From an uncultured Clostridia bacterium (lineage in GTDB: Bacteria; Bacillota; Clostridia; TANB77; CAG-508): DNA of 64,000 nucleotides. The notes beneath the pieces are model-generated. The model searched no databases. It was not told where the DNA came from and was given only the letters and a program-made list of their open reading frames with translations. The DNA lies in NCBI GenBank assembly GCA_904384245.1, contig CAJFJM010000001.1, positions 21,252-85,251 of the forward strand, in the 5' to 3' direction. The translations under genes were made by a program, and so were the position numbers. Positions 19,125 through 36,423 of the stretch are shown one piece after another (the stretch's first letter is position 1; each line of letters begins with the position of its first letter).

Positions 19125-20996
19125 ATGTTAGAAAAAATAAATTCACAACAAGACCTAAAAAAATTAACACTAGAAGAAAAGAAAATACTTGCACAAGAAA
19201 TTCGAGAATATATATTAGATATAGTATCAAAAAATGGAGGGCATTTAGCCTCTAATCTAGGTGTAGTAGAATTAACTATTGCTCTTCATAGTGTTTTTGA
19301 TGTTCCAAAAGATAAAATTGTTTGGGATGTAGGACATCAAACTTATGTGCATAAAATTTTAACAGGAAGAAAAGAAGAATTAAAAACATTAAGAAAGTTA
19401 GATGGAATAGCAGGTTTTCCTAAAACAAATGAATCTGAATCAGATTGTTTTAATACAGGTCATAGTAGTACATCAATTTCAGCAGCACTTGGGATGGCTA
19501 GAGCAAGAGATATAAAAAATGAACATAATTCAGTATTAGCAGTTATAGGTGATGGGGCTTTAACTGGAGGTATGGCAATAGAAGCATTAAATGACGCAGG
19601 ATATAGTAGGTCAAAAATAACAGTTATTTTAAATGATAATGAAATGAGTATCTCTAAAAATGTTGGCGGACTAAATATGTTCTTAAGTAAGCTAAGAACA
19701 AAAAAATTATATACAAAATCAAATGTTTCAGCAAAAAAAATCATATTAAAAATTCCAGTTGTAGGAAGACCATTTGTACGATTAGTTCAAAGAGCTAAAA
19801 GGAGTATAAAACAGTTAATTATACCTAAAATGTTTTTTGAAGATATTGGTTTTACATATTTAGGTCCAGTTGATGGGCATAATATACAAGAATTAGAAAA
19901 TATTTTAAGATTAAGTAAACAAGTAGATACACCAGTTTTAATACATGTTTTAACTAAAAAGGGTAAAGGATATGAAATAGCAGAAAAAAATCCAGATAAA
20001 TTTCATTCAATTTCCCCTTTTAATGTAGAAACAGGAGAGACCAAAAAAGCAAAATCAAAAGATTATTCAGCAGTTTTTGGAGAAAAATTGGTAAGTTTGG
20101 CAGAAAAAAATGATAAAATAGTAGCAATTACAGCATCTATGAAAGATGGGACAGGTCTTACTAAATTTCAAAAGCAATTTCCAAAAAGATTTTTCGATAT
20201 AGGAATTGCAGAACAACATGCTGTAGGGCTTGCAGCAGGAATGGCAAAGGCTGGAATGATACCTGTTGTTCCAATATATTCGTCTTTTTATCAAAGGGCA
20301 TATGATCAAGTTATTCATGATGTAGCAATACAAAATTTACCAGTCATAATGTGTGTAGATAGAGCTGGAATAGTTGGGGCAGATGGAGAAACACATCAAG
20401 GTTTATTGGATATGGCATTTTTTAGATTAGTACCAAATTTAACAATTATGGCACCTAAAAATTTTAAAGAATTAGAAAAAATGTTAGAATTTGCTGTTAA
20501 TTTAAATAAACCAGTAGTTATAAGATATCCAAGAGGTGGAGAAGATAGTATAGATATAAATACTGATTTAGAAATAAATGAAGGAAAAGCAGAGATTTTA
20601 AAAGATGGAACAGACATTACAATTGTAGCAATAGGAAAAATGGTTTCAAGAGCATATAGAGTAGCTGATAAATTAAAACAAAATAATATTGATGCACAAG
20701 TTATAAATGCAAGATTTTTAAAACCATTTGATAATAATACTGTAAAAAATGCAATAGAAAAAACAAAAGCAGTTGTTACAATTGAAGATGGAACTATTAT
20801 AAATGGACTAGCAACAACAGTTAATGAACTTGTAATAAATGAAAATTTATTAGGAATAAAAATTAAAAACTTTGCTTATCCAGATATCTATGTAAAACAT
20901 GGAAGTGTAGAAGAATTAGAAAAAATATATGGATTAGATGAAGAAAATATAACAGAGAAAATAGAAAAAATGCTAAAAGATGAGGTATTAGTTTAA
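19125..20996 (+). CDS. dxs: 1-deoxy-D-xylulose-5-phosphate synthase
   Basis: 623 aa; TPP-binding GDGALTGGMAIEALN, typical Dxs N-terminus. Confidence 0.95.
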   Translation: MLEKINSQQDLKKLTLEEKKILAQEIREYILDIVSKNGGHLASNLGVVELTIALHSVFDVPKDKIVWDVGHQTYVHKILTGRKEELKTLRKLDGIAGFPKTNESESDCFNTGHSSTSISAALGMARARDIKNEHNSVLAVIGDGALTGGMAIEALNDAGYSRSKITVILNDNEMSISKNVGGLNMFLSKLRTKKLYTKSNVSAKKIILKIPVVGRPFVRLVQRAKRSIKQLIIPKMFFEDIGFTYLGPVDGHNIQELENILRLSKQVDTPVLIHVLTKKGKGYEIAEKNPDKFHSISPFNVETGETKKAKSKDYSAVFGEKLVSLAEKNDKIVAITASMKDGTGLTKFQKQFPKRFFDIGIAEQHAVGLAAGMAKAGMIPVVPIYSSFYQRAYDQVIHDVAIQNLPVIMCVDRAGIVGADGETHQGLLDMAFFRLVPNLTIMAPKNFKELEKMLEFAVNLNKPVVIRYPRGGEDSIDINTDLEINEGKAEILKDGTDITIVAIGKMVSRAYRVADKLKQNNIDAQVINARFLKPFDNNTVKNAIEKTKAVVTIEDGTIINGLATTVNELVINENLLGIKIKNFAYPDIYVKHGSVEELEKIYGLDEENITEKIEKMLKDEVLV

Positions 20997-22026: not shown

Positions 22027-22566
22027 ATGGAAAAATTGATATTAAAAGCAAAAAAAGGAGATAAAGCAGCTTTTACAGAATTGTTTGTTAAAATTGAAAA
22101 TGATTTATATAAATTAGCAAAAGTAAAAATAAAAAGTGAAGAAGATGTAGAAGACGTAGTCCAAGAAACTATGATAAAAGCTTTTATATCAATTCGTAAA
22201 TTAAAGTCTAATAAAGCTTTAAAAAAATGGATTGTGCAAATATTATTTAACAATTGTAAAAGATATTTTAAAAAGAAGGAGAGGAGGGAATGTAGTTATG
22301 AAATAGAAATTATTAAATTGGACAAGGCCGACCAAAAAGATTTTTTTGAAAGTACAGAAAATGATGTTGATTTTAAATTGTTACTTCATTCTTTAAGTGA
22401 AGAAGAAAAAATAATTATTTTACTTTTTTACAATGAAAGATATACCACAAAGGAAATAGGAAGTTTGCTAGGAATTAATGAAAATACTGTAAAATCTAAA
22501 TTAGCAAGAGCCAAAAAGAAAATAAAAATCCTAAAGGAAAGTGAGGAAGAAATATGGATGAAATAG
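22027..22566 (+). CDS. ECF-type RNA polymerase sigma-70 family factor
   Basis: 179 aa; region 2 (…DVVQETMIKAF…) and region 4 HTH (…YTTKEIGSLLGINENTVKSKLARAKKKI…). Confidence 0.8.
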   Translation: MEKLILKAKKGDKAAFTELFVKIENDLYKLAKVKIKSEEDVEDVVQETMIKAFISIRKLKSNKALKKWIVQILFNNCKRYFKKKERRECSYEIEIIKLDKADQKDFFESTENDVDFKLLLHSLSEEEKIIILLFYNERYTTKEIGSLLGINENTVKSKLARAKKKIKILKESEEEIWMK

Positions 22567-23702
22567 ACAGATATCTTGAAAAAAAGTTTAAAGAAGAAGT
22601 AGAAGTGCCAGAAAGTTTTGAAAAAGCTATAAGACAAGCTTTATATTCAGAAAGATTTGAAAAAGTATGTAGAAAAAGAAAACTTATAAAAAATATATCA
22701 ATTTTTTGTTTATTACTTATTTGTACTTCTGGATGTGCAATTGGTGGATATATAGCATATGAAAATGTATGGAAGGAGCCGAAGCAGTATACGTATGCAG
22801 AATTAAAAAATACGATTGAACAATCAAATGTAATGGAAGAAGAAAAAGCAAATTTAATTTCAGAGGAAGAGGCAAAAGAAAAAACATTGGAAATTGTGAA
22901 TAATTTAGGATATAAGAATCAGGAAATAACTAAGATTGAGTTGAATCAGAATAAAGAAGAGGGATATGAAGAAGTATATTATTCAATAGAGAGTAAAAAT
23001 AATTATAATGAAAATTTAAAAATAAGTTTAGATGCTGTGACAGGAGAATTAAACTTTTTAGAAGATGAAAGAAATATGACTAATAGTAATAACAAAGTTT
23101 CAATTGAACAGGCAACTAATATATCAAATAAAATTTATAATGATGCAGGATTAACCCAAGAATATAAGATGAGTTCATGTCAAGAGGAAATAAGAGTATA
23201 TAAAGGTCAAGATATTGAGATGTGGGTGTCAAAATATAATAAAATATATGATAATTTAATAAATCCATATGAAGAAATAGAAATATTGTTTACAATACAT
23301 AATGATGAGACAAAGATAGCATCAATTATTAAATCTAAAAATGGGATGTATGAGGACAATGAAGAAGTTATAACAGAGAATGAAGCAATTGAAATCGCAA
23401 AAAATAAAGAAAAGGAGCTAACCGATAACGAGGTATCTAAGATTGATTCAACTATAGGAATAAGAAAATTTAATAAATATATATATGACTTAGAAAATAA
23501 TGTTGTTATTAATAATGAAAAGGTAGATAGCGATGATAAGATGATTGCTGAAACTGAGAATAGAGTTAGAAAAGTATGGATAATTAGTATATATCATGAA
23601 GAAATTGAAACAGATAGTATAGAGAATTATTTAAAATCAAAAGATAAATCTTATTATATTGATGTTACAACAGGAGAAATTGTAGGAGGGTCAAAAATTT
23701 AA
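22554..23702 (+). CDS. putative membrane-anchored anti-sigma factor with extracellular PepSY-like repeats
   Basis: Overlaps the sigma gene by 13 nt (translational coupling); single TM (ISIFCLLLICTSGCAIGGYIAY); repeated about 60-aa PepSY-like modules. Confidence 0.5.
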   Translation: MDEIDRYLEKKFKEEVEVPESFEKAIRQALYSERFEKVCRKRKLIKNISIFCLLLICTSGCAIGGYIAYENVWKEPKQYTYAELKNTIEQSNVMEEEKANLISEEEAKEKTLEIVNNLGYKNQEITKIELNQNKEEGYEEVYYSIESKNNYNENLKISLDAVTGELNFLEDERNMTNSNNKVSIEQATNISNKIYNDAGLTQEYKMSSCQEEIRVYKGQDIEMWVSKYNKIYDNLINPYEEIEILFTIHNDETKIASIIKSKNGMYEDNEEVITENEAIEIAKNKEKELTDNEVSKIDSTIGIRKFNKYIYDLENNVVINNEKVDSDDKMIAETENRVRKVWIISIYHEEIETDSIENYLKSKDKSYYIDVTTGEIVGGSKI

Positions 23703-23774: not shown

Positions 23775-24341
23775 TTAGATTATTGCATAATCATAATCTA
23801 CAAATGCACTCCTGTATATCCCAGGAGGATTGGCAACACTAGAAGCATCGAAAAACAATTGTATTGTTTCCCCTTGAGAGACACTACAAGAAACTGAAAA
23901 AGCGGTTGAACCTGACCGATCATCTACAACGACAGTAGAAGATTTTATGCTACCTGAAGTAGAACGAATTTGGACTGTTAATTTAATGCGGCTAACATTA
24001 GCATAGCCATCTGTACCTCTAAAAATACCAGAGATAACTAATGTACCGCTTTGTCCCATTGTCTTAATTGGAGTAAGGTTATAATCTGTGAAAGTATAAC
24101 TTCCTCCAAAACCTGAACCAACCCATGTTTCGTTGCCAGCTCTGGGTTCCAAATTGATATCGGAGATAATTGTTGATAAATCAACAGTTTTAACAGTTTC
24201 AACATCTTCAACAGGTGTTTCTTCAGAGTTTGTGCTTTCCATTTCCTGCGCAAATACTGGTGATACAGAAAATGTCAGCATTGAAGCAATCATGCTTAAG
24301 CAAAAGATACACCGCTTGATTTTTGATTTCAAGAATTTCAT
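23775..24341 (-). CDS. secreted beta-rich protein of unknown function, compositionally foreign (about 40% GC)
   Basis: Signal peptide (…MIASMLTFSVSPVFAQE) then Gly/Ser/Thr-rich beta-type sequence; a hand count of 100 nt gives 43% GC versus 21% in the sigma-factor gene nearby; AAGGAG RBS 8 nt before the second ATG (24341). Confidence 0.55.
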   Translation of the reverse strand: MKFLKSKIKRCIFCLSMIASMLTFSVSPVFAQEMESTNSEETPVEDVETVKTVDLSTIISDINLEPRAGNETWVGSGFGGSYTFTDYNLTPIKTMGQSGTLVISGIFRGTDGYANVSRIKLTVQIRSTSGSIKSSTVVVDDRSGSTAFSVSCSVSQGETIQLFFDASSVANPPGIYRSAFVDYDYAII

Positions 24342-25047
24342 AAATTTTTCTCCTTTCATGAAAAGAAATCAAATAATAGTTGCCTAATTTTTCTTTCAAG
24401 TTTTCCATATCTAAAATCATTTCCACAAGAGAAATGATTAAAGACCGAACGAGTCTTGACATAAATCGAATACTAAATACTATAAAACTGCAGTTTTCGA
24501 TATAATATGAAAAAAAAATAAATAATTTTAAAAAATTAAAAATAAATATTTTTAATTAGGTATTTTTATAATACTAATAAATTTATATAAATCATTATAT
24601 TACTCAAAAAGTTCTGATTATAAAACAAAATACAATATTAAAAAATAAAAATTACCTAATGTCGAATTTTGTCAATGAAAAGTCAAGAAATTTTAGCACA
24701 AACTCTTGTATTCTCTAAATAAATCTGTTATATTGATTATATCTTTTTAATCCAATATTTTTACATAAAGTTAATTATTGTTCATTGTTCCATTTTTTTA
24801 TATTTTTTTGTTATAATATATTTTTATTTATGAATCTTTACATTTCATTTTACTAATAATATTTATAAGTCTTTGAAAAAACAGCATTTTATTAAATAAT
24901 TTTTTATTCAATAATTTTTAATCAAATATATTGTAAAAAATCATATAAATTTATTAAAAATTTTTAAAAATTGAGAAATTCCACAAAAATTTTATTCTAA
25001 TATATTGAAAAAATATATTAGTTTGATAAAATAGAAAGAGAGGTAAT

Positions 25048-26025
25048 ATGAATAAACCAACTAATGAACTTAAATTTTCACTAAAGAACGATTATATATT
25101 CAAAAAAATATTTGCAAAAGAAGAAAACAATAGTAAATTAAAAGATTTTTTAGAAGCTATTTTAAATATAGAAATAAAAAAAGTAGAAGTAAAAAATCCA
25201 GAAATACCAAAGAATATGTTAGATGAAAAACTAGCAATATTAGACATAAGAGCAGAAATAAATGAAGATACAATGATTGATATAGAAATGCAAGTAGCAA
25301 ACCAATATAACATATCAGAAAGAAGTACAATATATACAGCAAAAATGATATCATCAGATGTTAAAGTAGGTGAAGAATATAAAGATATGAAAAAAACAAT
25401 ATCAATAAATATATTAAACTTCAATTACTTTAAAACAAATACATATCATAATATAGCACATATGAAATTTGAAAAAGTAAAAAAAGAAGAATATGTGGAT
25501 ATGGGATATGAAGAAGAACAAGAGATAGTAACAGAAAAAGTAGAGATGCATTTTATTGAATTACCAAAATTTGTCCAGAAAGATTCAGGAACAAAAAGTA
25601 AATTAGAACAATGGCTCTGGGTAATGGTAGGAAAGGGGGACAAAATGGAAAAGGCAGGAAAAGAAAATAAAGAAGTAGAAAAAACAATAGATGAATTAAA
25701 CACAATGAACCTAAGTGAAGAAGAAAGAATAATGTATGAAGAAAGAGAAAAAGCTATTATAAATTATAATTTTGGAATGGCATCAGCAGAAAGACATGGA
25801 AGAGAAGAAGGATTGAAAGAAGGTATAGAGAAAGGTCAAAGAAAAGGCAAAATGGAAGGGCGAAAAGAAGGTATAGAAAAAAAGAAAAGTGATATGATAA
25901 AAAATATGTTGCTTTTAAAAATTGATGATGATACTATAAAGAAAGTAGCCGAAATTACAGATTCTGAGTTAGAATCTTATAAAAAGAAATTTAATATGAT
26001 AGAAAAGGAAAAGTTAGATAAATAG
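25048..26025 (+). CDS. Rpn-family recombination-promoting nuclease / transposase_31-like (PDDEXK_7)
   Basis: N-terminus …LKNDYIFKKIFAKEEN…LKDFLEAIL…ILDIRAE… typical of Rpn/YhgA; C-terminal EG/KG-rich repeats. Confidence 0.75.
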   Translation: MNKPTNELKFSLKNDYIFKKIFAKEENNSKLKDFLEAILNIEIKKVEVKNPEIPKNMLDEKLAILDIRAEINEDTMIDIEMQVANQYNISERSTIYTAKMISSDVKVGEEYKDMKKTISINILNFNYFKTNTYHNIAHMKFEKVKKEEYVDMGYEEEQEIVTEKVEMHFIELPKFVQKDSGTKSKLEQWLWVMVGKGDKMEKAGKENKEVEKTIDELNTMNLSEEERIMYEEREKAIINYNFGMASAERHGREEGLKEGIEKGQRKGKMEGRKEGIEKKKSDMIKNMLLLKIDDDTIKKVAEITDSELESYKKKFNMIEKEKLDK

Positions 26026-26109
26026 TACTGAAAAATAGATATAGTTATCAATAAAAAAAGGATTATGAGGTAATTCAAAAAAATATCATGATATTACTTG
26101 GAGGTAAAT

Positions 26110-26940
26110 ATGAAAACACAAAAAAAATCAAAAGAAGAGCTAGAAAAACTAGCAAAAAAAATACGATTAGGGATAATAGATGAAGTATATTATGGAAAAT
26201 CAGGGCATCCAGGAGGTTCTTTGTCAATTGCAGATATTATGACGGTTTTATATTTTGATGAAATGAACATAGATAATGAAAATCCTAACTGGGAAGATAG
26301 AGACAGATTAGTATTATCTAAGGGACATTGTTCACCAGCATTGTATGCAGCACTTGCATATAGAGGATTTTTTCCAGTCGAAGATTTAAAGACTTTTAGA
26401 AATATAAATAGTTATTTACAAGGACATCCAGATAAAAAAAATATACCAGGAGTTGATATGAGTACAGGTTCATTAGGACAAGGGCTGTCAGCAGCAAATG
26501 GAATGGCAATATCAGCAAAATTAAACAAAAAAAATTATAGAGTATATTGTATTTTAGGTGATGGAGAAATAGAAGAAGGTCAAATATGGGAAGCTGCAAT
26601 GTCATCTAGTAAGTATAAATTAGATAATTTATGTGTAATTGTAGACAATAATAATTTGCAAATAGATGGAACAATTGATGAAGTTATGAGTTCAAAACCA
26701 ATAGATGATAAATTTAGAAGTTTTGGGTTTGAAATAATAAAAATAGATGGACACAACATAGAAGAAATTAAAAATGCTTTTGAAGTAGCAAAAAATGTAA
26801 AAGAAAAGCCAGTATGTATTATTGCAAAAACAATAAAAGGTAAAGGTGTAAAATATATGGAAAACAAAGTTGATTGGCATGGAAAAGCACCTAATGAAGA
26901 TGAATATAAACAAGCTATTATAGATATTGAAAATATGTGA
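26110..26940 (+). CDS. transketolase, N-terminal (TPP-binding) subunit
   Basis: GHPGGSLS, GDGE…EG motifs; 277-280 aa; GGAGG RBS before ATG 26110; no C-terminal subunit gene follows. Confidence 0.9.
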   Translation: MKTQKKSKEELEKLAKKIRLGIIDEVYYGKSGHPGGSLSIADIMTVLYFDEMNIDNENPNWEDRDRLVLSKGHCSPALYAALAYRGFFPVEDLKTFRNINSYLQGHPDKKNIPGVDMSTGSLGQGLSAANGMAISAKLNKKNYRVYCILGDGEIEEGQIWEAAMSSSKYKLDNLCVIVDNNNLQIDGTIDEVMSSKPIDDKFRSFGFEIIKIDGHNIEEIKNAFEVAKNVKEKPVCIIAKTIKGKGVKYMENKVDWHGKAPNEDEYKQAIIDIENM

Positions 26941-27147
26941 TAAAAAAAGATTTTGAACTACTTCAAAATCTCCACAAGAATTAAATAAAGTATAGCACAA
27001 AAAACAAAAAAAAACAAATATTAAAAAAGTAAAATAAAATAAGATAAATGAATAAAAAAAGAGATAAAACCATATAATAATATTAAAATAGAAAAAATTA
27101 AAAGAAATATTATTTGTAAATTAAAATATCATATGTTAAAATATAAA

Positions 27148-27475
27148 TAACTTCAAAGAAGAAGTTAAAAATAATAAGTTAATAATTTTCCCTGCATAGT
27201 ACGTGTAGACAGAATTTTTAGAACCAACACACATAGAAGAGGGGCCAATCTCGAAAATATGGCGTGCATGCTCACCGTTTGAATTGTGAGAAGCCCATGA
27301 GTATTTTGGTAGGCACCCACCTGTTTTTAGGAACAGGTCCTTAAAAATTCAAGACATCTTGCGGCTAAGGCGGGGGGTATTTTTAATAAAAAATTAAATT
27401 AAGTAAATTTTTAAGTGCACTGCTAAAAAGTTTGTATATGGAATAAATAAAATTCGTATACAAACTTTTTTTAAT
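27148..27475 (+). ncRNA. candidate structured RNA of about 330 nt (family not recognised)
   Basis: Possible sigma-A promoter (TTGTAA 27113-27118, 17 nt spacer, TAAAAT 27136-27141); GC-rich core 27181-27370 with several local stems; no convincing ORF; strong terminator AAGTTTGTATA…TATACAAACTT then T7 at 27430-27475; the downstream gene has its own promoter. Confidence 0.3.
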
Positions 27476-27549
27476 TCGTTTTAAATATTGCATTTTGAGC
27501 ATTTTTTATGTATAATATGAAAAAAAGTCGAAGGGTGGAGAATTGTGTC

Positions 27550-29460
27550 ATGTATGAAAGGAGTGCAATAGTACTAGAGAGATATTTTAATTATTTATTT
27601 GGACTTCAAAAAGAAAAAAACTTAAGCACTAACTATCAAAATTATATTTCACTGGTAGACGAATTAGAAAAATACCAAAATATAATAGACGAAGAAGAAA
27701 AAGTTATCAAAAGTTTTGATGAAGTTGCAACTAAAATACAAGAGATACAAAAGAAACAAGAAAAATTAAGTAATATAAATATAAAACTGGAAGAAGAAAG
27801 AGGCAAATTATTTAATGCCCTTGATGAATCCCCTTCTTTAATAGAAAAAAAATTAGAAAAAATAGAGAGCACCATTGAAAATAATGCACAAGAATTACAA
27901 AATTTAAAAGAAGATTTTATAGATTCTTTAAAAAGCTTTTCAGATAGACAAGTAGAAAGAAATAAATGTTCAAGAACAAAAAGAGTTGTAGAAGCAAATC
28001 ATATATCTTTTATAAAACAAGTAACAGAAGAAATACAAGCAATAGATATATCAGATTTAAAAAAGGTCAAATTATTTTTGACAAATGAAGATACAAAAAT
28101 GCAAGATGAGCTTATAAAAATAATGATGGAAAATGGAAAAAATGAAAAAGTAAAGTTTAATAAAGAAGTCATTCAAAAAGCTGTTATTGCAAGAATAGGT
28201 ATAGCAAAAAAAGAAGCAGAAGGATATTTACTTTCTTATGATAAAATGAGAAGGCTTTTATCAGAAATAGATAATGATACTTTAAAACTTTCAAAATATC
28301 AAAAAGTTTTCAGAGATTTAAGTGTAAAATTTTCTTTTTTGGAAGCAGAAAAGAATTATATTTTTGGCTTTTTAGATAATGAAAGAATGACAGCAATAAA
28401 TGGAGAAAAAATTCATTCTGAAATGATGAAAGAAGCATGCCAAAATTTTGATGTAGATATGGCTCAAATAAAAAATCTATATGAACTAATTTTAAGAGAA
28501 GTAGCAGGGAAATCAACTAAAAAAGCATATAATGAATTATATAATAAAACATATTTAAAAGATATAGAAGATAAAGAAAAGAATTTTGAAGAAGAAGTAA
28601 CACATATGAAGATTCAAGGAACAGTAATAAATTCTAATTACTGGAGAATAGAAGGAATTAAAAATTTGTATGATGTATTCCAAAAAGAAGTAAGCGAAAA
28701 ATTCAATAAAGATTTATCAGAATATAAAATTGAAGAGGAAGAAGAACCCAATACAGATATTGATATTGATTTAGATATATTTGGAGATTCTGATTATGAA
28801 GAAGATTATACAAATGATGTAGATGATGAAGATTTAAAAAATACGAAAGATAAAGAAGATGAAGAAAACGAAAATTATATTGACGACGAAGAAGATGAAT
28901 ATGAATATGAGGAACAATATGATGAGGAAGAAAACGAAGATGATGAAGATTTAGAAGATGAATATAATTCAGAAGAGGATTTAGAAGATGACCTAGAAGA
29001 GGATGACGAAGAAGAATTCGAAGATGAAGAATATGAAGATGAAGAAGATTATGAAGAAGAATATCAAGAATCAGAATATGATGAAGAAGATGAGGATACT
29101 GAAGATGAAGATAATTATGAAGAAGATGAAGAAGATGATGATGAAGATTTAGAAGAAAGTTATGACGAAGAAGATGAAGAAGATTATGACAATAAATATG
29201 AAGAAGATGAAGGGAATGATAGCAGATTCAAAAAAATAACAAATAAAAATTATAAATCTCCAAAATACTATGAAGATGAAGACGAAGAAGACGAGGAAGA
29301 TGAAGATTACGAAGATGATGTAGACATTTATAGAAATAATAGAGTAAATAAAAGAAATAGAGGAAATATTGATGATAGACTAGCAAAATACAAAGAAAAA
29401 ATGAAAGGAGAAAAACAAGCAAAAGGACTTTTAGGATTTTTTAAAGATAGAAAAAGATAA
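27550..29460 (+). CDS. coiled-coil protein with about 250-aa poly-acidic (D/E/Y-rich) C-terminal tract and short basic tail
   Basis: Promoter TTGCAT-17-TATAAT (27488-27516) lies inside the ORF-track start; GGTGGAG RBS 9 nt before ATG 27550; residues about 400-600 are almost entirely D/E/Y. Confidence 0.6.
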   Translation: MYERSAIVLERYFNYLFGLQKEKNLSTNYQNYISLVDELEKYQNIIDEEEKVIKSFDEVATKIQEIQKKQEKLSNINIKLEEERGKLFNALDESPSLIEKKLEKIESTIENNAQELQNLKEDFIDSLKSFSDRQVERNKCSRTKRVVEANHISFIKQVTEEIQAIDISDLKKVKLFLTNEDTKMQDELIKIMMENGKNEKVKFNKEVIQKAVIARIGIAKKEAEGYLLSYDKMRRLLSEIDNDTLKLSKYQKVFRDLSVKFSFLEAEKNYIFGFLDNERMTAINGEKIHSEMMKEACQNFDVDMAQIKNLYELILREVAGKSTKKAYNELYNKTYLKDIEDKEKNFEEEVTHMKIQGTVINSNYWRIEGIKNLYDVFQKEVSEKFNKDLSEYKIEEEEEPNTDIDIDLDIFGDSDYEEDYTNDVDDEDLKNTKDKEDEENENYIDDEEDEYEYEEQYDEEENEDDEDLEDEYNSEEDLEDDLEEDDEEEFEDEEYEDEEDYEEEYQESEYDEEDEDTEDEDNYEEDEEDDDEDLEESYDEEDEEDYDNKYEEDEGNDSRFKKITNKNYKSPKYYEDEDEEDEEDEDYEDDVDIYRNNRVNKRNRGNIDDRLAKYKEKMKGEKQAKGLLGFFKDRKR

Positions 29461-29478
29461 TAAAGGTGGTGAAGTAAT

Positions 29479-30324
29479 ATGACAATAAGACAAGCAATAG
29501 AAAAAGGTGTAATTGAGTTAAAAGTAGCAAATGTAGAAACACCAAAATTAAAAGCAAGATTACTTATGCAATATGTATTAAATAAAACTAGACAATATAT
29601 AATAGTACATGATACAGAGAATTTATTAGAGGTTAAACAAAATGAATATTTTAGATGTATAGATAAACTTAAAAAAGGATATCCAATAGAGCATATTACT
29701 CACCAAAAAGAATTTATGAAACTAAACTTTTTTGTAAATGGAGATGTTTTAATACCAAGGCAAGATACAGAAATATTAGTAGAAGAGGTAATAAAAATTT
29801 CAAAAGAAATGAGAGTAAAAAAAATACTAGATTTATGCACAGGAAGTGGAGCTATTGCAGTTTCTCTTGCCAAATACCTTAGTGATGTTGAAATAACAGC
29901 AATAGATATTAGTCATAAAGCAATTAAAACAGCAAAAAAGAATGCAGTATTTCATAAGGTAGAAGATAGAATTACTTTTTTGGAATCTGATTTATTTGAA
30001 AACTTAAAAAATCAAAAGTATGATTTAATTGTTTCAAACCCACCATATATAAAAAAAGATTTAATAAAAAAATTAGATAAACAGGTTCAAAAAGAACCAT
30101 ATATTGCATTAGATGGAGGATATGATGGACTAGATTTTTATAGAAAAATTATTAAAAATGCATATGAATATTTAAAATATGGAGGGTATTTATGTTTAGA
30201 AATAGGTTATGATCAAAAAGATGATGTAATAGATTTAATAAATAAGGAACATCAATATTCTAAAACATATGTAAAAAAAGATTTATGTAATAATGATAGA
30301 GTTGTTATTACAAGAGTTTTGTAA
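29479..30324 (+). CDS. prmC: release-factor glutamine N5-methyltransferase PrmC/HemK
   Basis: NPPY motif (VSNPPYI), SAM motif DLCTGSGAIA. Confidence 0.9.
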   Translation: MTIRQAIEKGVIELKVANVETPKLKARLLMQYVLNKTRQYIIVHDTENLLEVKQNEYFRCIDKLKKGYPIEHITHQKEFMKLNFFVNGDVLIPRQDTEILVEEVIKISKEMRVKKILDLCTGSGAIAVSLAKYLSDVEITAIDISHKAIKTAKKNAVFHKVEDRITFLESDLFENLKNQKYDLIVSNPPYIKKDLIKKLDKQVQKEPYIALDGGYDGLDFYRKIIKNAYEYLKYGGYLCLEIGYDQKDDVIDLINKEHQYSKTYVKKDLCNNDRVVITRVL

Positions 30325-30474
30325 GAAAATTGTTGTAAGATAGATAAAAAGAAAATAATATTGTTTTTTAAATAGGAATGGTTAATCACGAGAGCTTAGA
30401 AAATGAAAATGGCAAGTTTTATCTTGCCATATTAAGATATAATAAAATATTTTAAAATTAAAGAAGGGATAAAA

Positions 30475-31386
30475 ATGTCATTTTCATCAGATATAAAAAA
30501 GGAATTGGGAAAAATAAACAATTTATCAAATAAAGTTCAAGTTTTGTATGAGCTAATAGGATATCTTATTACATATAATACAAAAATAATAAATAAAAAA
30601 ACATTAAGATTTGCAACAGAAAGTGATTATAATATAAACAGATTTTCTAAATTATTAGAGAATTTAAAAATAGAGCATAATATAGAAATGGAAGGAAATC
30701 TTTTTGTAATAAGTTTTAAATTAAAAGATATATCACAAAAATTAAAAGACATATCACAAGACTTTTTAGAAGAAAGTACATTAACATTGAATAACGATTT
30801 TGATAAATTAGAATTAAGCGAAGAAGAAATAAAGTCGCTTGTAAGAGGTTGTTTCTTAGGTTCTGGATCTGTAAATAATCCAGATATAAATTATCATTTA
30901 GAAATTACTTTTTCACAAATAATAAATATGAAAAAAATACAAAATCTTATTGAGCAAAAAGGAATTAAAGTAAAAATATTAGAAAAAGAAAATAGATATT
31001 CAATATATATTAAAGAAGCGGAAGAAATTTCAAGATTACTTGCTTTAATGGGAGCAAACAAAGGTGTTTTAAAATTTGAAGAAATAAGAATTCAAAGAGA
31101 AATGAGAGGAAAAGTAAATAGAATAGTAAATTGTGAAACTGCAAATTTAAACAAAACGATAAATGCAGCAGTACAACAAATTGAAGCAATAAAAAAATTA
31201 AAAGAACAAGGTAAATTTGGAAAGCTAAATGATAATTTAAAAGAAATAGCAAATTTAAGACTAAAAAATCCGGACATATCTTATGAAGAATTAGGAAACA
31301 TGCTAAAAAATCCTGTAGGAAAATCAGGAGTGAATTATAGACTAAAAAAAATAATAGAAATAGCACAAGAAGGAGAAGAAAAATAA
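30475..31386 (+). CDS. whiA: DNA-binding sporulation/cell-division regulator WhiA
   Basis: 303 aa; degenerate LAGLIDADG-like domains (RGCFLGSGSV) and C-terminal HTH (…LRLKNPDISYEELGNML…). Confidence 0.8.
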   Translation: MSFSSDIKKELGKINNLSNKVQVLYELIGYLITYNTKIINKKTLRFATESDYNINRFSKLLENLKIEHNIEMEGNLFVISFKLKDISQKLKDISQDFLEESTLTLNNDFDKLELSEEEIKSLVRGCFLGSGSVNNPDINYHLEITFSQIINMKKIQNLIEQKGIKVKILEKENRYSIYIKEAEEISRLLALMGANKGVLKFEEIRIQREMRGKVNRIVNCETANLNKTINAAVQQIEAIKKLKEQGKFGKLNDNLKEIANLRLKNPDISYEELGNMLKNPVGKSGVNYRLKKIIEIAQEGEEK

Positions 31387-32759
31387 TGAAAAAAGAGTTA
31401 GGCATATATTTGCATATTCCTTTTTGTAAGAAAAAATGTTATTATTGTGATTTTGTATCATATGCAGATAAATTATTATACCAAGAAAGATATATAAATG
31501 CATTACTTTTAGAAATAGAATCACAAAAAGACATATTAAAAGAAAGTAATATAACTACAATATATATAGGAGGAGGAACACCTTCTATTATAGATGTAAA
31601 ATATATAAAATTAGTTATAAATAAATTGAATGAAATATTAAATTTTAATAATTCAAACATAGAAATAGATAAATCTAATTTATTAGATAATAATGAAAGA
31701 GATTTATTAAATAATAATGAGAAAGACTTATTAAATATAGAAAATTTAAATTTGATAAAAAAGCCTATAGAAATAACAATAGAATTAAATCCAGGAACAG
31801 TAACAAAAGAAAAATTAGAGCAATACTATAATTTAGGAATAAATAGGCTAAGTATAGGGCTTCAATCTACACAAGATAAACTATTAAAACAAATAGGAAG
31901 AATACATACATATAGTGAATTTCTTCAAACCTATAAATTAGCAAGAGAAATAGGTTTTAAAAATATAAATATAGATTTAATGATAGGCTTACCAAATCAA
32001 AGTATAGAAGATATAAAAGAAACAGTAGAAAATATAATCAATTTAAATCCAGAACATATTTCTGTATATTCTTTAATAGTAGAACAAGGAACAAAAATTG
32101 CAGAACTAATAGATTCTGGAGATTTAAAATTACCAGATGAAGACCTAGAAAGAATGGAATACTCATATGTAAAAAACAAATTAGAACTTGCAGGTTTTAA
32201 CCAATATGAGATATCTAATTTTGCAAAAGAAAATTATTATTCAAAACATAATGTAAATTGTTGGAAACAAAAAGAATATATAGGTTTTGGAATTTCAGCA
32301 CATTCATATTTTGAAAATATAAGATTTTCAAATACAGAAGATTTTAACAAATATATAGATTCAGGATATTCAGACTTTGAAAAATTTAATATAAAAAATT
32401 TATTAAAAAATATTAACTGTAGTGAATTAGAAGAAGAAACGATTATTGAAAATCAAGAACTTAGTAGAGCGAAAATTATTAAGTATATTGAATTAGAAAG
32501 TAAAGGATTAAAAACAATACATGAAATACAAACAACAGAAGAAAAGCAAAAAGAATATATGTTACTGGGATTAAGAATGCTAGAAGGTGTTTCAATATCT
32601 GAATTTAAGCAAAAGTTTGGCGAAAATCCAATATATTTATTTAGAGAAAGTTTAAGCAAATTGGTAGAAGAAGAATTAATAAAAATAGATTTGGATAATA
32701 TTTTTCTAACAAGAAAAGGATTAGATTTAGCAAATTTAGTTTGGGAAGAATTTGTTTAA
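31386..32759 (+). CDS. hemW: radical SAM heme chaperone HemW (HemN-like)
   Basis: LHIPFCKKKCYYCDF CxxxCxxC motif, HemN C-terminal domain; overlaps the whiA stop by 1 nt. Confidence 0.85.
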   Translation: MKKELGIYLHIPFCKKKCYYCDFVSYADKLLYQERYINALLLEIESQKDILKESNITTIYIGGGTPSIIDVKYIKLVINKLNEILNFNNSNIEIDKSNLLDNNERDLLNNNEKDLLNIENLNLIKKPIEITIELNPGTVTKEKLEQYYNLGINRLSIGLQSTQDKLLKQIGRIHTYSEFLQTYKLAREIGFKNINIDLMIGLPNQSIEDIKETVENIINLNPEHISVYSLIVEQGTKIAELIDSGDLKLPDEDLERMEYSYVKNKLELAGFNQYEISNFAKENYYSKHNVNCWKQKEYIGFGISAHSYFENIRFSNTEDFNKYIDSGYSDFEKFNIKNLLKNINCSELEEETIIENQELSRAKIIKYIELESKGLKTIHEIQTTEEKQKEYMLLGLRMLEGVSISEFKQKFGENPIYLFRESLSKLVEEELIKIDLDNIFLTRKGLDLANLVWEEFV

Positions 32760-32830
32760 AATCCCTTTTCTTAGGTTTATAGGTAAAACCATAAACAAAA
32801 AACCTAAATAAAAATAAGGAAAAATAAACA

Positions 32831-34117
32831 ATGGATAAAAAATTAGAATGGAGAAGATTAGATAATTCAGCTAAAATCTTTCCCATATCAGCTGGAAAAA
32901 AGTACAGTACAGTATTTAGATTATCTGTAGTACTAAAAGAAAAAGTAAATGCAAATATTTTAAAAGAAGCAGTAAAAATTGCTTTAAATAAATATAAATA
33001 TTTTAAAGTAAGGATGAAAGAAGGATTTTTTTGGAACTATTTTGAATATAATCCAAAAGAACCAATAATAGAACAAGAACAAGAATATCCATGTAAATAT
33101 ATAGATCCTAATAAAAATAATCAATATTTATTTAAAGTAACATATTTTAACTGTAAAATTAACATAGACATTTTTCATTCTTTAACAGACGGAAATAGTG
33201 GAGTAGTATTTTTTAGAGAAATAATATATGATTATCTAGAACTATCTTATCCAGAAGTTTTTCAAGAAGAATTAAGAAAAATAAGAAAAGTAGATATATC
33301 TTCAGAAGATAGTTATATAAAAAATTATGATAAAAAATCTAAAAATCATATTCAATCTAAAAAAGCATATAAATTATATGGAAAAAAAATAAAATTAGGA
33401 GCAATTTCTGCAATTCATGAAATAATAGAACTAGATAAACTAAAAGAAGAATGCAAAAAAAATGATGCAACTATTACTCAATATTTAACAGCTGTTTTAA
33501 TATATAGTATATATACTGAAAATTATTTAAAACACAAAGGAAAAAGACCAATTAAAGTATGTATACCAATAAACTTAAAAAAATATTTCCCATCTAATAC
33601 AATTTCTAATTTCTTTTCATATATGACAGTGGAAGCAGAAATGAAAAAAGACAATTTAACAGATTTTGAAAAAATATTAGAATTTGTAAAACAAGAATTT
33701 AAGAAAAAATTAACACAAGAAGAAATTCAAAACACAATGTCAAATAATGTAAAACTAGGAATAAATCCATTTATAAAAACAATACCACTATTCCTAAAAA
33801 AGCCAATAGTAAGATTAAGTTATATAGAAATAAGAAAATATACAACAACAACATTTTCTAATATAGGAAGAATAGGTATAATAGGAAAATACAAAGACTA
33901 TATAGAGGAATTTTTAATGCTAATTGCTCCAGAGCCAGTAGAAAAAATAAAATGTTCAGCATGTTCATTTGAAAACAAAATAGTTTTTACATTTACATCT
34001 ATATTAGATGATGCAAAAATAGAAAAAAGATTTTTTGAATTTTTACAAGGAAAAGGTATTCCAGTAAAAATAGAAAGTAATGGTGTTTTAGATGTTATAT
34101 CCACAAAAATTAAGTAG
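32831..34117 (+). CDS. putative acyltransferase of the condensation/WS-DGAT/AATase-like superfamily
   Basis: 428 aa; HSLTDGNSG (HxxxDG) catalytic-type motif about 115 aa from the N-terminus. Confidence 0.4.
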   Translation: MDKKLEWRRLDNSAKIFPISAGKKYSTVFRLSVVLKEKVNANILKEAVKIALNKYKYFKVRMKEGFFWNYFEYNPKEPIIEQEQEYPCKYIDPNKNNQYLFKVTYFNCKINIDIFHSLTDGNSGVVFFREIIYDYLELSYPEVFQEELRKIRKVDISSEDSYIKNYDKKSKNHIQSKKAYKLYGKKIKLGAISAIHEIIELDKLKEECKKNDATITQYLTAVLIYSIYTENYLKHKGKRPIKVCIPINLKKYFPSNTISNFFSYMTVEAEMKKDNLTDFEKILEFVKQEFKKKLTQEEIQNTMSNNVKLGINPFIKTIPLFLKKPIVRLSYIEIRKYTTTTFSNIGRIGIIGKYKDYIEEFLMLIAPEPVEKIKCSACSFENKIVFTFTSILDDAKIEKRFFEFLQGKGIPVKIESNGVLDVISTKIK

Positions 34118-34655
34118 TAAAAAAAGTAATTTAATAATAAAAAGTTTGCTCATAGTTTCAATAATTATAGCAATATTATTAGTTATAATTAACAAATTAA
34201 CAACTCCAGAAATACACTGGGCAGCTTTAGCAAATAGTGGTATAATTTATACATGGCTTACAGTATTATATTCAATAAATAAAAATACAAATATAGCAGC
34301 ACATGTTATGATTCAAACAATTGCAATATCAATATTAACAACATTTATAGATTATAGAATAGGATTTAAAGGTTGGTCATTAGAAATAGCTATTCCAATT
34401 ATTTTAATAATAGCAAATGTAACAATGCTTATTTTAACAATAGTAAGTCATAGAAAATACATAAGATATGCAATATATCAGTTAATTATATGTATATTTA
34501 GTTTATTACCATTATATTTTATTTATGAGAAATTTATATATCAAAATGTATTAAGTTATATAGCAGTAGGAATATCAATTCTAAATTTTTTAATAACAAT
34601 ATTATTATGTGCAAGAGATGTAAAAGAAGTAATAATAAGGAAATTCCATGTTTGA
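34092..34655 (+). CDS. small polytopic membrane protein (about 5 TM), unknown function
   Basis: 187 aa, hydrophobic helices; overlaps the upstream gene by 26 nt. Confidence 0.4.
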   Translation: MLYPQKLSSKKSNLIIKSLLIVSIIIAILLVIINKLTTPEIHWAALANSGIIYTWLTVLYSINKNTNIAAHVMIQTIAISILTTFIDYRIGFKGWSLEIAIPIILIIANVTMLILTIVSHRKYIRYAIYQLIICIFSLLPLYFIYEKFIYQNVLSYIAVGISILNFLITILLCARDVKEVIIRKFHV

Positions 34656-34662
34656 TTTTCCT

Positions 34663-34758
34663 CGGATAATGGGGACACGCCATTTCGTCCGAATCGGATA
34701 ATGGGGACAGGCTGTTTTATCCGAATCGGATAATAGAGACGCGCCATTTTCTCAGAAA
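34663..34758. repeat. perfectly periodic 32-bp tandem repeat x3 (TCGGATAATGGGGACACGCCATTTCGTCCGAA-like)
   Basis: Units at 34663, 34695, 34727; unit junctions form TTATCCG-AAT-CGGATAA palindromes; begins 8 nt after the stop of the upstream gene. Confidence 0.85.
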
Positions 34759-34818
34759 ACTAAAATATTAGATGGATTTACTTAGTTAGAATTTAAAAAG
34801 AAATTTAGGTGATAATAT

Positions 34819-34992
34819 ATGTCAAATAATAAAACAGGACTTATATTAGTAAAAGATACAAAATTTGATAAAATAAGAAGAAAATTGTTGATGTTTTTTT
34901 GGGGAAAGGATTATAAGATAATAGAAGAGTTTCAATCTATAATTCAGGTAAAAAGACCAAAAAATATAATAATTCCCAAAGAAATAAAGTGA
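34819..34992 (+). CDS. possible 57-aa small ORF between the two repeat sets
   Basis: AGGTGA RBS 7 nt before ATG 34819; MSNNKTGLILVKDTKFDKIRRKLLMFFWGKDYKIIEEFQSIIQVKRPKNIIIPKEIK; its stop overlaps the start of the next repeat. Confidence 0.25.
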   Translation: MSNNKTGLILVKDTKFDKIRRKLLMFFWGKDYKIIEEFQSIIQVKRPKNIIIPKEIK

Positions 34993-35150
34993 ACGATAGG
35001 GACACGCCATTTTGTTTCCGTTCTTACTAGGAGTGGCTTTTAGCTGTTAGTATTTATACTTTTTGAGATGAACGTTAGGGACATGCCATTTTGTTCACGA
35101 TTTTGCTATGAGTGGCTTTCAGCTGTCAGCTTTCACTGCTTTTTTGAGAT
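34990..35150. repeat. about 80-bp tandem repeat x2 sharing the GGGACAYGCCATTTTGT core, each ending in CTTTTTTGAGAT
   Basis: Unit A 34990-35068 and unit B 35070-35150 (about 75% identical); each contains AGTGGCTTT(T/C)AGCTGT(T/C)AG. Confidence 0.75.
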
Positions 35151-35397
35151 ACTTTTTAAGGATACACCTTAAAAATTCGAATATAGAACAAAGAGTAGTT
35201 TTTAACTAATACGAAAAATAAATGAGTAATGGAGAAGGTTAAAAAATAATTATAATTTTGACTGTGTTAAATTTTATTTAAAACGTGGTTACATACAATG
35301 TATGAGTATGTCTTTACTTTTTAAATATAATTTTCCTTGCCAAAATTTAAATCTTAAAAAACCAAATTTGTGCGTTTGGAAAGGAATGAATTAAAAA

Positions 35398-36423
35398 ATG
35401 AAAAATATAAAGGATTATACATTAGAAGAATTAAAAGAAGAAGTGAAAAATCTTGGAGAAAAGCCATTTAGAGCAGAGCAGATTTTTAAATGGCTATATG
35501 AAGACAAGGTTTTATCATTTGATGATATGACAAATTTATCAATTGATTTAAGAAACAAATTGAAAGAAATATATGAAATCAAACAATTTAAGATTTTAAA
35601 GAAACAAGTAGCTTCAGATGGTACTAAAAAATATTTGTTTGATTTATTAGACGGAAATGCCATAGAGACAGTTTTAATGCAATATCATCATGGATATAGT
35701 TTATGTGTTTCATCACAGGTTGGTTGTAAAATGGGTTGTAAATTTTGTGCATCTACAGGGATACCATTTGTAAGAAATTTAACTACAGGTGAGATTTTGG
35801 AACAAATAATGGCAGTAGAAAGAGATGAGAATATCCGTATTTCAAATGTAGTATTTATGGGAATAGGTGAACCATTAGATAATTATGATAATGTAGTAAA
35901 AGCTATACATTTGATAAATAATCCAAAATGTTTAAATATAGGAGCAAGACATATTAGTATTTCTACAAGTGGATTAGTTCCTAAAATATATAAATTAGCA
36001 GAAGAAAATATACAATGTACATTATCTATATCTTTACATGCAACAACAAACGAGCAGAGAAGCAAAATGATGCCAGTTAATAATACATATCATATAGAAG
36101 AATTGTTACAGGCATGTAAGGATTACATAGAAAAAACTAATCGTAGAATTTCTTTTGAATATGCATTGGCAAAAGAAAATAATGATAATTTAGAAGATGC
36201 TAAAAGATTAGTAAAATTATTAAAAGGAATGTTATGCCATGTTAATTTAATACCAATAAATAAAATAGAAAATGGTGAATTTACAAAAAGTTCAAATGAA
36301 AATATAATAAAATTTAGAGATTATTTAAATGAACATGGAATTGTTGCAACAATTAGAAGAGAACTAGGTTCAGATATAGATGCAGCTTGTGGACAACTAA
36401 GAAGAAAAAATTTACATGAATAA
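35398..36423 (+). CDS. rlmN: 23S rRNA (A2503-C2)/tRNA methyltransferase RlmN
   Basis: radical SAM CKMGCKFCAS, typical RlmN length and N-terminus. Confidence 0.9.
   Translation: MKNIKDYTLEELKEEVKNLGEKPFRAEQIFKWLYEDKVLSFDDMTNLSIDLRNKLKEIYEIKQFKILKKQVASDGTKKYLFDLLDGNAIETVLMQYHHGYSLCVSSQVGCKMGCKFCASTGIPFVRNLTTGEILEQIMAVERDENIRISNVVFMGIGEPLDNYDNVVKAIHLINNPKCLNIGARHISISTSGLVPKIYKLAEENIQCTLSISLHATTNEQRSKMMPVNNTYHIEELLQACKDYIEKTNRRISFEYALAKENNDNLEDAKRLVKLLKGMLCHVNLIPINKIENGEFTKSSNENIIKFRDYLNEHGIVATIRRELGSDIDAACGQLRRKNLHE

Follow-up and report, generated by a model that had tools for sequence, protein, structure and literature searches.

6S RNA is a widespread and long-known family of RNAs that mimic an open promoter and sequester RNA polymerase. 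In B. subtilis 6S-1, whose mechanism and structure have been described in several studies (PMC8876501, PMC10578484, PMC3923129), as in the 6S-1-type consensus, the central bubble shows an open 5' strand and a pre-formed hairpin in its 3' strand (PMC8876501, PMC3923129). The product RNA (pRNA) 14-mer of B. subtilis 6S-1 reads 5'-GUUCGGUCAAAACU (PMC8876501), which gives AGUUUUGACCGAAC as the complementary template, and an 11-nt 5' precursor segment of this RNA is removed by RNase J1 (PMC10578484). 6S RNA has also been described in clostridial genomes (PMC3649979). The 6S RNA of C. difficile (RCd3, CD630_n00410) has a sigma-A promoter and has been validated experimentally, and northern blots revealed forms of ~200 and 175 nt, which point to a primary RNA and its processed product (PMC3649979).

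The window analysed here is a stretch of 64,000 nucleotides (64 kb) from an uncultured Clostridia bacterium. A first-pass annotation of this DNA had singled out a GC-rich intergenic region as a candidate for a novel small RNA, for a ribozyme or for a riboswitch leader of c-di-AMP-like type, and had recognised no 6S hallmarks in it. When the region was scanned with Rfam, it proved to belong to a known family instead: the 6S/SsrS model (RF00013) matches the core over its full length, from model position 1 to 187 of 187, with 73.8 bits (gathering score 46.4; E = 1.1e-12 with the whole window searched, E = 1.2e-14 with 26900-27600 searched). This score lies in the lower part of the range of Firmicutes-like relatives, some of which reach ~100 bits. 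The scan of the whole window with Rfam 15 returned three matches above their gathering scores, namely two tRNAs and 6S/SsrS. Riboswitch and ribozyme families, including c-di-AMP (ydaO/yuaA), gave no match in 26900-27600 at E <= 1, on which ground the riboswitch idea was rejected, and the sole other match in that interval at E <= 1 was a chance hit to a miRNA model (21 bits; gathering score 85). Based on these results and on the evidence presented below, the locus is with a probability of about 95% the ssrS gene that encodes 6S RNA in this uncultured member of the Clostridia, the genome of which is very AT-rich. It is a standard, independently transcribed gene of an already known kind and not a novel one, and every sequence- and structure-based feature of the 6S family that the tests could reach was found in it. 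The coordinates of its parts are collected in Table 1.

Table 1 Features of the 6S RNA locus, with positions counted from the first letter of the 64-kb window.
Feature	Position	Strand	Basis
Sigma-A-type promoter of the 6S gene	27114..27142	+	Promoter scan; relatives
5' leader, ~36 nt, with small hairpin (27148-27154 with 27161-27167)	27148..27185	+	
6S RNA (SsrS) body, 195 nt	27186..27380	+	RF00013, fold, covariation
Closing stem	27187-27204 with 27361-27378	+	
Predicted pRNA template, 5'-AAUUUUUAGAACCAAC-3'	27213..27228	+	Analogy with B. subtilis 6S-1
Helix P2	27215-27225 with 27336-27348	+	
5' strand of central bubble, single-stranded	27226..27239	+	Predicted unpaired; Rfam and RNAalifold consensus
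Apical stem-loop arm	27240-27318	+	
Conserved GGCACCCACCUG block, directly 5' of the 3'-bubble hairpin	27312-27323	+	
Hairpin of the 3' bubble strand, ACCUGUUU-UUAG-GAACAGGU	27319..27338	+	Minimum-free-energy fold, RNAalifold
T5 run right after the closing stem, possible proximal 3' end	27380..27384	+	Relatives
Intrinsic-terminator hairpin, 18 bp, 10-nt loop, plus T7	27425..27472	+	Fold energy

All of the sequence features that had drawn attention to the region held up. The GC-rich core measures ~195 nt and contains 44-45% G+C, compared to 10-25% in its flanks. In 100-nt windows, G+C amounts to 43-44% across 27200-27350, to 10-17% in the 250 nt upstream and to 21-29% downstream, while the window as a whole has 25.2%. 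As had been stated, no open reading frame of note is present, all of those overlapping 27100-27510 being 51 aa or shorter; one of 51 aa runs on the minus strand at 27165-27320, antisense to the 6S RNA.

Threading the Rfam consensus on the window sequence yields canonical pairs at 46 of 51 positions, with five non-canonical ones, and the unconstrained minimum-free-energy and centroid folds both give the same rod as the consensus. In the minimum-free-energy fold, the closing stem of this rod is followed by helix P2, which is rich in A/U (GAAUUUUUAG with CUUAAAAAUUC), by a large internal loop and by the apical arm. The folding z-score is modest for the 195-nt body (-1.6) and reaches -3.5 for a 336-nt unit. 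The 5' strand of the bubble (RNA positions 40-54) has a mean predicted unpaired probability of 0.97, compared to 0.39 for the whole RNA. A GAAUUUUUAGAACC block, in the form GAAUUUUUAGAACC(A/U)AC, is near-invariant in 22 aligned relatives. The hairpin of the 3' bubble strand comprises 8 bp, is seen in the minimum-free-energy fold as well as in the RNAalifold consensus, and is kept in distant relatives with other inner pairs (CCUGGU/ACCAGG, CCUGCC/GGCAGG, CCUGCUC/GAGCGGG). An open 5' strand and a 3'-bubble hairpin, the combination that marks the 6S-1 subtype, are thus both present in the predicted fold, and on this model the RNA of the window is placed with the B. subtilis 6S-1 type. The pairing GAACC/GGUCC that Rfam sets atop P2 covaries in the wide set of relatives (helix 5). 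It is in competition with the hairpin of the 3' bubble strand, which leaves the precise borders of the bubble ambiguous. Pairing and hairpin probably represent alternative states of the kind known from 6S-1. A further small hairpin at 27357-27375, proposed by the terminator scan, was discarded, as its 5' arm varies (CTTGC, CTTAC, CTGAC) without compensation and its bases pair in the closing stem.

Relatives of the RNA were sought by scanning metagenome contigs for two of its conserved blocks (GTGCATGC-N25-55-GGCACCCACCTG) and by means of a covariance model built from the window sequence and the Rfam structure. This locus-built model matched 61 further metagenome sequences with scores graded from 249 down to 29 bits, and found no 6S-2 paralogue within the 64-kb window. 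Rfam called 6S in all 14 relatives that were submitted to it, in 13 of them at the same coordinates and in one (L092) over a longer span. Six loci that carried the pattern without a call by either the locus-built model or Rfam (L029, L032, L047, L060, L069, L085) were regarded as chance or non-6S occurrences and excluded.

Covariation analysis of such homologues, which the first-pass annotation had proposed as a check, revealed compensatory changes and supports a structured RNA. In the model-fitted alignment of 56 distinct sequences, 88.9% of cells pair, compared to 40-45% in controls slid by 1-3 columns, and changes on both sides occur in 41 of 51 pairs, values that none of 500 shuffles reached. 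As an alignment fitted to a model is biased towards its own structure, 22 close relatives were aligned with MAFFT, blind to structure, and the count was repeated with the Rfam structure mapped on via the row of the window. Here, 86.5% of cells pair (36-47% in slid controls), both-side changes are found in 9 pairs (2-6 in slid controls) and the covariation score is 0.129 (0.02-0.06 in slid controls). Applied to the MAFFT alignment, RNAalifold independently yields the closing stem, P2 and the apical arm, leaves the 5' bubble strand open and forms the hairpin of the 3' strand.

Contigs of the same species, found via their identical PrmC protein in many ENA metagenome assemblies, are too alike for covariation. 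Among them, the 195-nt body differs at a single position (G/T at 27377, at the 3' end), and in the most divergent strain, L003, the remaining 11 mismatches and 2 gaps all fall in the 3' tail (27385-27480). An invariant body next to a variable tail is the pattern that would be expected under selection on the RNA body. A scan of species-representative genomes with WhiA retrieved five MAGs of uncultured Clostridia (from chicken, rabbit and other sources) with 56-66% WhiA identity; the species of the window was itself absent from that collection. A 6S match was absent from all five MAGs; in the two closest, the contigs stop short of the 6S position, inside the gene for an acidic protein that lies between 6S and prmC.

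The promoter-like pair upstream of the RNA was recovered by the promoter scan, the first-pass coordinates being off by a few bases at most. It consists of a -35 element TTGTAA (27114-27119), a 17-nt spacer with a TG at 27134-27135, and a -10 element TAAAAT (27137-27142). In such an AT-rich stretch, matches of this kind are no commoner than chance (4 found, 4.8 expected from shuffles). Among the 26 closest relatives, all 26 carry a TGnTAnnnT -10 element and, ~17 nt upstream of it, a TTG-containing -35 element; the promoter element precedes the 6S boundary by 12-60 nt in these relatives, which indicates that the promoter is conserved and that the length of the leader is free. Within the species the promoter is invariant except for the 'n' of TGn. 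In the window, the -10 hexamer ends 43 nt ahead of the Rfam 6S boundary, which puts the start near 27149 and leaves a leader of ~36 nt. We infer that transcription starts at ~27148-27150; the 6S RNA would thus be transcribed from its own sigma-A promoter with an extended -10 element. The hairpin in the leader folds with -6.2 kcal/mol (z = -4.4), and both length and sequence of the leader vary freely among relatives. By analogy with B. subtilis 6S-1, the leader is presumably either trimmed or retained as a precursor segment.

At the 3' end, the reported terminator is present as an AT-rich stem (27425-27442 with 27453-27470) with T7 at 27466-27472. It folds with -17.1 kcal/mol (z = -6.9), and none of 200 shuffles fold as well. 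The consensus terminator scan missed this hairpin because it demands three G-C pairs. In the divergent strain L003, the terminator is kept despite three substitutions (-15.5 kcal/mol, z = -8.5). Among the 26 closest relatives, 23 have a run of T4-T9 directly past the closing stem, which suggests that in relatives the closing helix of the 6S RNA itself serves as the terminator stem. The distal hairpin sits 45-90 nt downstream of the closing stem and its T5 run, and would act as a back-up or as the main terminator, insulating the next gene. Transcription would consequently end either at the T-run (~27384) or at the strong hairpin terminator (~27472), and the transcript would probably be trimmed to a mature RNA of ~195-205 nt. 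The unit of about 330 nt that had originally been proposed hence agrees with the maximal primary transcript; the mature RNA most likely has the shorter length. A tentative reading, which we consider possible though rather doubtful, is that in the lineage of the window the proximal T-run has decayed and the distal hairpin has taken over, giving a ~325-nt precursor that needs trimming or a long isoform. The 5' leader of ~36 nt, unusually long and with a hairpin at its start, may belong to the same variation in biogenesis. If true, such a terminator switch would be a small variation in how 6S RNA is made and no new kind of RNA.

Another reading would be that the whole ~325-nt transcript (27149-27472) is the functional species, with leader hairpin and trailer as functional extensions of the 6S core. 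Conservation of leader, promoter and terminator within the species is in line with it, as are the low energy of the 336-nt unit relative to shuffles, with its extended closing stem, and the state of the proximal T-run, which is short here (T5) and degenerate in a sister lineage (L077) that shares the distal terminator. We nevertheless consider it unlikely, as no other part varies more within the species than the 3' trailer, most relatives are without a trailer and have T5-T9 adjoining the closing stem, and the leader is free to vary among relatives. A GC-rich, structured intergenic island upstream of the next gene and on the same strand would also fit the original proposal, according to which this gene is controlled by a novel sRNA, by a ribozyme or by a leader that resembles a riboswitch (for example of the c-di-AMP type). 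The proposal is highly improbable in light of a full-length 6S match that explains the entire core and of an Rfam scan of 26900-27600 that returned no riboswitch or ribozyme family at E <= 1. In addition, the strong terminator and a separate promoter stand between the RNA and the next gene: as had been noted, this gene (start at 27550 according to the gene callers) has a promoter of its own, with a perfect TATAAT (27511-27516) located 17 nt past a weak TTGCAT (27488-27493), both read from the sequence, TTGCAT being below the -35 threshold of the promoter scan. Among relatives, the RNA is followed by unrelated genes or by a convergent tRNA.

The transketolase genes led to yet another explanation, in which the region is the remnant of a missing transketolase C-subunit gene or, alternatively, codes for a small protein, for instance through the 51-aa antisense frame. 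The complete gene for the 280-aa N-terminal (thiamine-diphosphate-binding) subunit (tktN, 26098-26940) is orphaned, and the statement that a C-subunit partner is missing beside it holds for the whole 64 kb, in which tblastn detects only the homologous half of Dxs (19125-20996); in the relative L017, tktN is followed by tktC, and the minus-strand frame does exist. Searching with the C subunit of a relative, however, tblastn yields nothing in 26940-27500 and matches only the Dxs gene, so that the degraded-tktC idea was rejected. Substitutions among relatives are base-pair compensatory rather than codon-like, and the element is also present in relatives without a transketolase gene nearby. An origin from a protein-coding gene, which the first-pass annotation had named as an outcome that would speak against an RNA, is thus extremely improbable, and the locus is best described as a stand-alone structured non-coding RNA gene, the 6S gene, with its own promoter and terminator; to this extent the first-pass annotation was right.

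The neighbourhoods of 6S genes in relatives are varied. In some, the gene lies 0.1-3 kb upstream of prmC-whiA-radical SAM-rlmN, in others ahead of a dnaE-like gene or beside a convergent tRNA, and in the L017 lineage directly upstream of tktN-tktC. Such variety indicates that the RNA is not the leader of any particular gene. The earlier remark that it occupies the place where the C-subunit gene is expected is therefore of little meaning, related 6S genes being found in quite different surroundings. The position after the orphan tktN is incidental and may stem from a rearrangement near the gene of an Rpn-family PD-(D/E)XK recombination nuclease / putative transposase (25048-26025), which adjoins tktN. 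The order 6S, tktN, tktC in L017 likewise suggests a rearrangement in the genome of the window. The 6S RNA of L017 is without a T-run. It is followed, at ~11650-11825 (minus strand) and just upstream of tktN, by a long-range inverted repeat whose arms (GGGGGACAGGT ... ACCTGTCCC) are ~60 nt apart.

Linkage of ssrS within 0.1-3 kb to prmC, whiA, a HemN-like radical SAM gene and rlmN was observed in many related contigs (L018, L023, L025, L026, L037, L050, L056, L062, L071, L078, L082 and others), and the cluster spans 27186-36423 in the window. Here, the gene at 27550-29460 encodes a 636-aa protein without a Pfam or NCBIfam match, composed of a ~415-aa N-terminal part, a ~200-aa hyper-acidic, D/E-rich tail and, at the C-terminus, a short basic stretch. 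Depending on the strain, the protein is called with 636, 639 or 650 aa. In MAGs of relatives, the contigs break within its counterpart, and several relatives have 6S immediately ahead of prmC, with this gene absent. WhiA (30475-31386) also shows a length polymorphism among same-species contigs, being called with 303 aa in some and with 296 aa in others (L002, L003, L005 and L007 compared).

Some further observations concern the DNA upstream of the 6S gene. Just past the tktN stop, a 10-12-bp hairpin (26948-26971) is preceded by an A7 run but not followed by a T-run (z = -5.0 on the plus strand, -3.1 on the minus strand). It would resemble an intrinsic terminator only on the minus strand, on which no gene is evident upstream of it. 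The interval 22027-23702 contains a gene for an ECF-type sigma factor (179 aa) and an open reading frame of 382 aa whose start overlaps it. This frame is without a family match and possibly encodes an anti-sigma factor. The opposite strand at 23775-24359 encodes a secreted-looking protein of 194 aa, again without a family match.

The analysis shows family membership, structure, covariation and the conservation of promoter and T-run; expression, RNA ends, polymerase binding and pRNA synthesis are inferred. Indirect evidence for an abundant, stable RNA of ~200 nt comes from the conserved promoter (26 of 26 relatives), the conserved T-run (23 of 26) and a body that varies by a single base within the species. 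By homology, the 5' bubble strand would mimic the template strand of an open promoter. The bubble as a whole would imitate an open promoter, such that the 6S RNA could sit in the active site of the sigma-A holoenzyme, the housekeeping form of RNA polymerase, and damp sigma-A-dependent transcription in stationary phase. Once nucleotides return, the polymerase would use the 5' strands of both the bubble and P2 as template for a short pRNA, predicted as 5'-GUUGGUUCUAAAAA..., and this synthesis would unwind P2, refold the 6S RNA and free the polymerase. With the start placed opposite C27228, the candidate pRNA would read 5'-GUUGGUUCUAAAAAUU, with 5'-GUUGGUUC as its predicted beginning. Constrained folding, used to mimic pRNA-induced refolding, removed P2 and gave no clear 'collapse helix'.

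In practical terms, the locus should be labelled ssrS (6S RNA) and dropped from lists of novel-RNA candidates. It is a routine member of its family, and standard annotation would assign the label automatically. In a genome of 25% G+C, a GC-rich island is a good flag for structured RNA, and known RNA families still need to be checked with covariance models. Two minor points of biology can be added, namely the ssrS-prmC-whiA-rlmN linkage in uncultured gut Clostridia and the variation in what is probably the formation of the 6S 3' end.

When compared to the RF00013 family, the RNA shares the length of ~195 nt, the closing stem, the central bubble, the apical arm, the GGCACCCACCUG block and the covarying consensus helices. 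Nothing of substance differs; its host genome is very AT-rich (25% G+C), and five of its consensus pairs are non-canonical. The C. difficile RNA RCd3 is likewise a 6S RNA of the class Clostridia with a sigma-A promoter, although it belongs to another lineage and another genomic context, and the two are likened by description. The resemblance to B. subtilis 6S-1 extends to the own sigma-A promoter and the 5' precursor segment (PMC10578484), with a leader of ~36 nt predicted here compared to 11 nt in B. subtilis. It also includes a U-rich-GA(A)CC-AAC template block like that of 6S-1 (bsrA), implying a pRNA that would start with GUU (PMC8876501); the predicted template AAUUUUUAGAACCAAC resembles AGUUUUGACCGAAC of B. 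subtilis by analogy only. The 3'-bubble hairpin is slightly longer in the window, with 8 bp compared to 5-7 bp in 6S-1, and, unlike B. subtilis 6S-1, the 6S gene of the window is followed by a second strong terminator 45-90 nt downstream.
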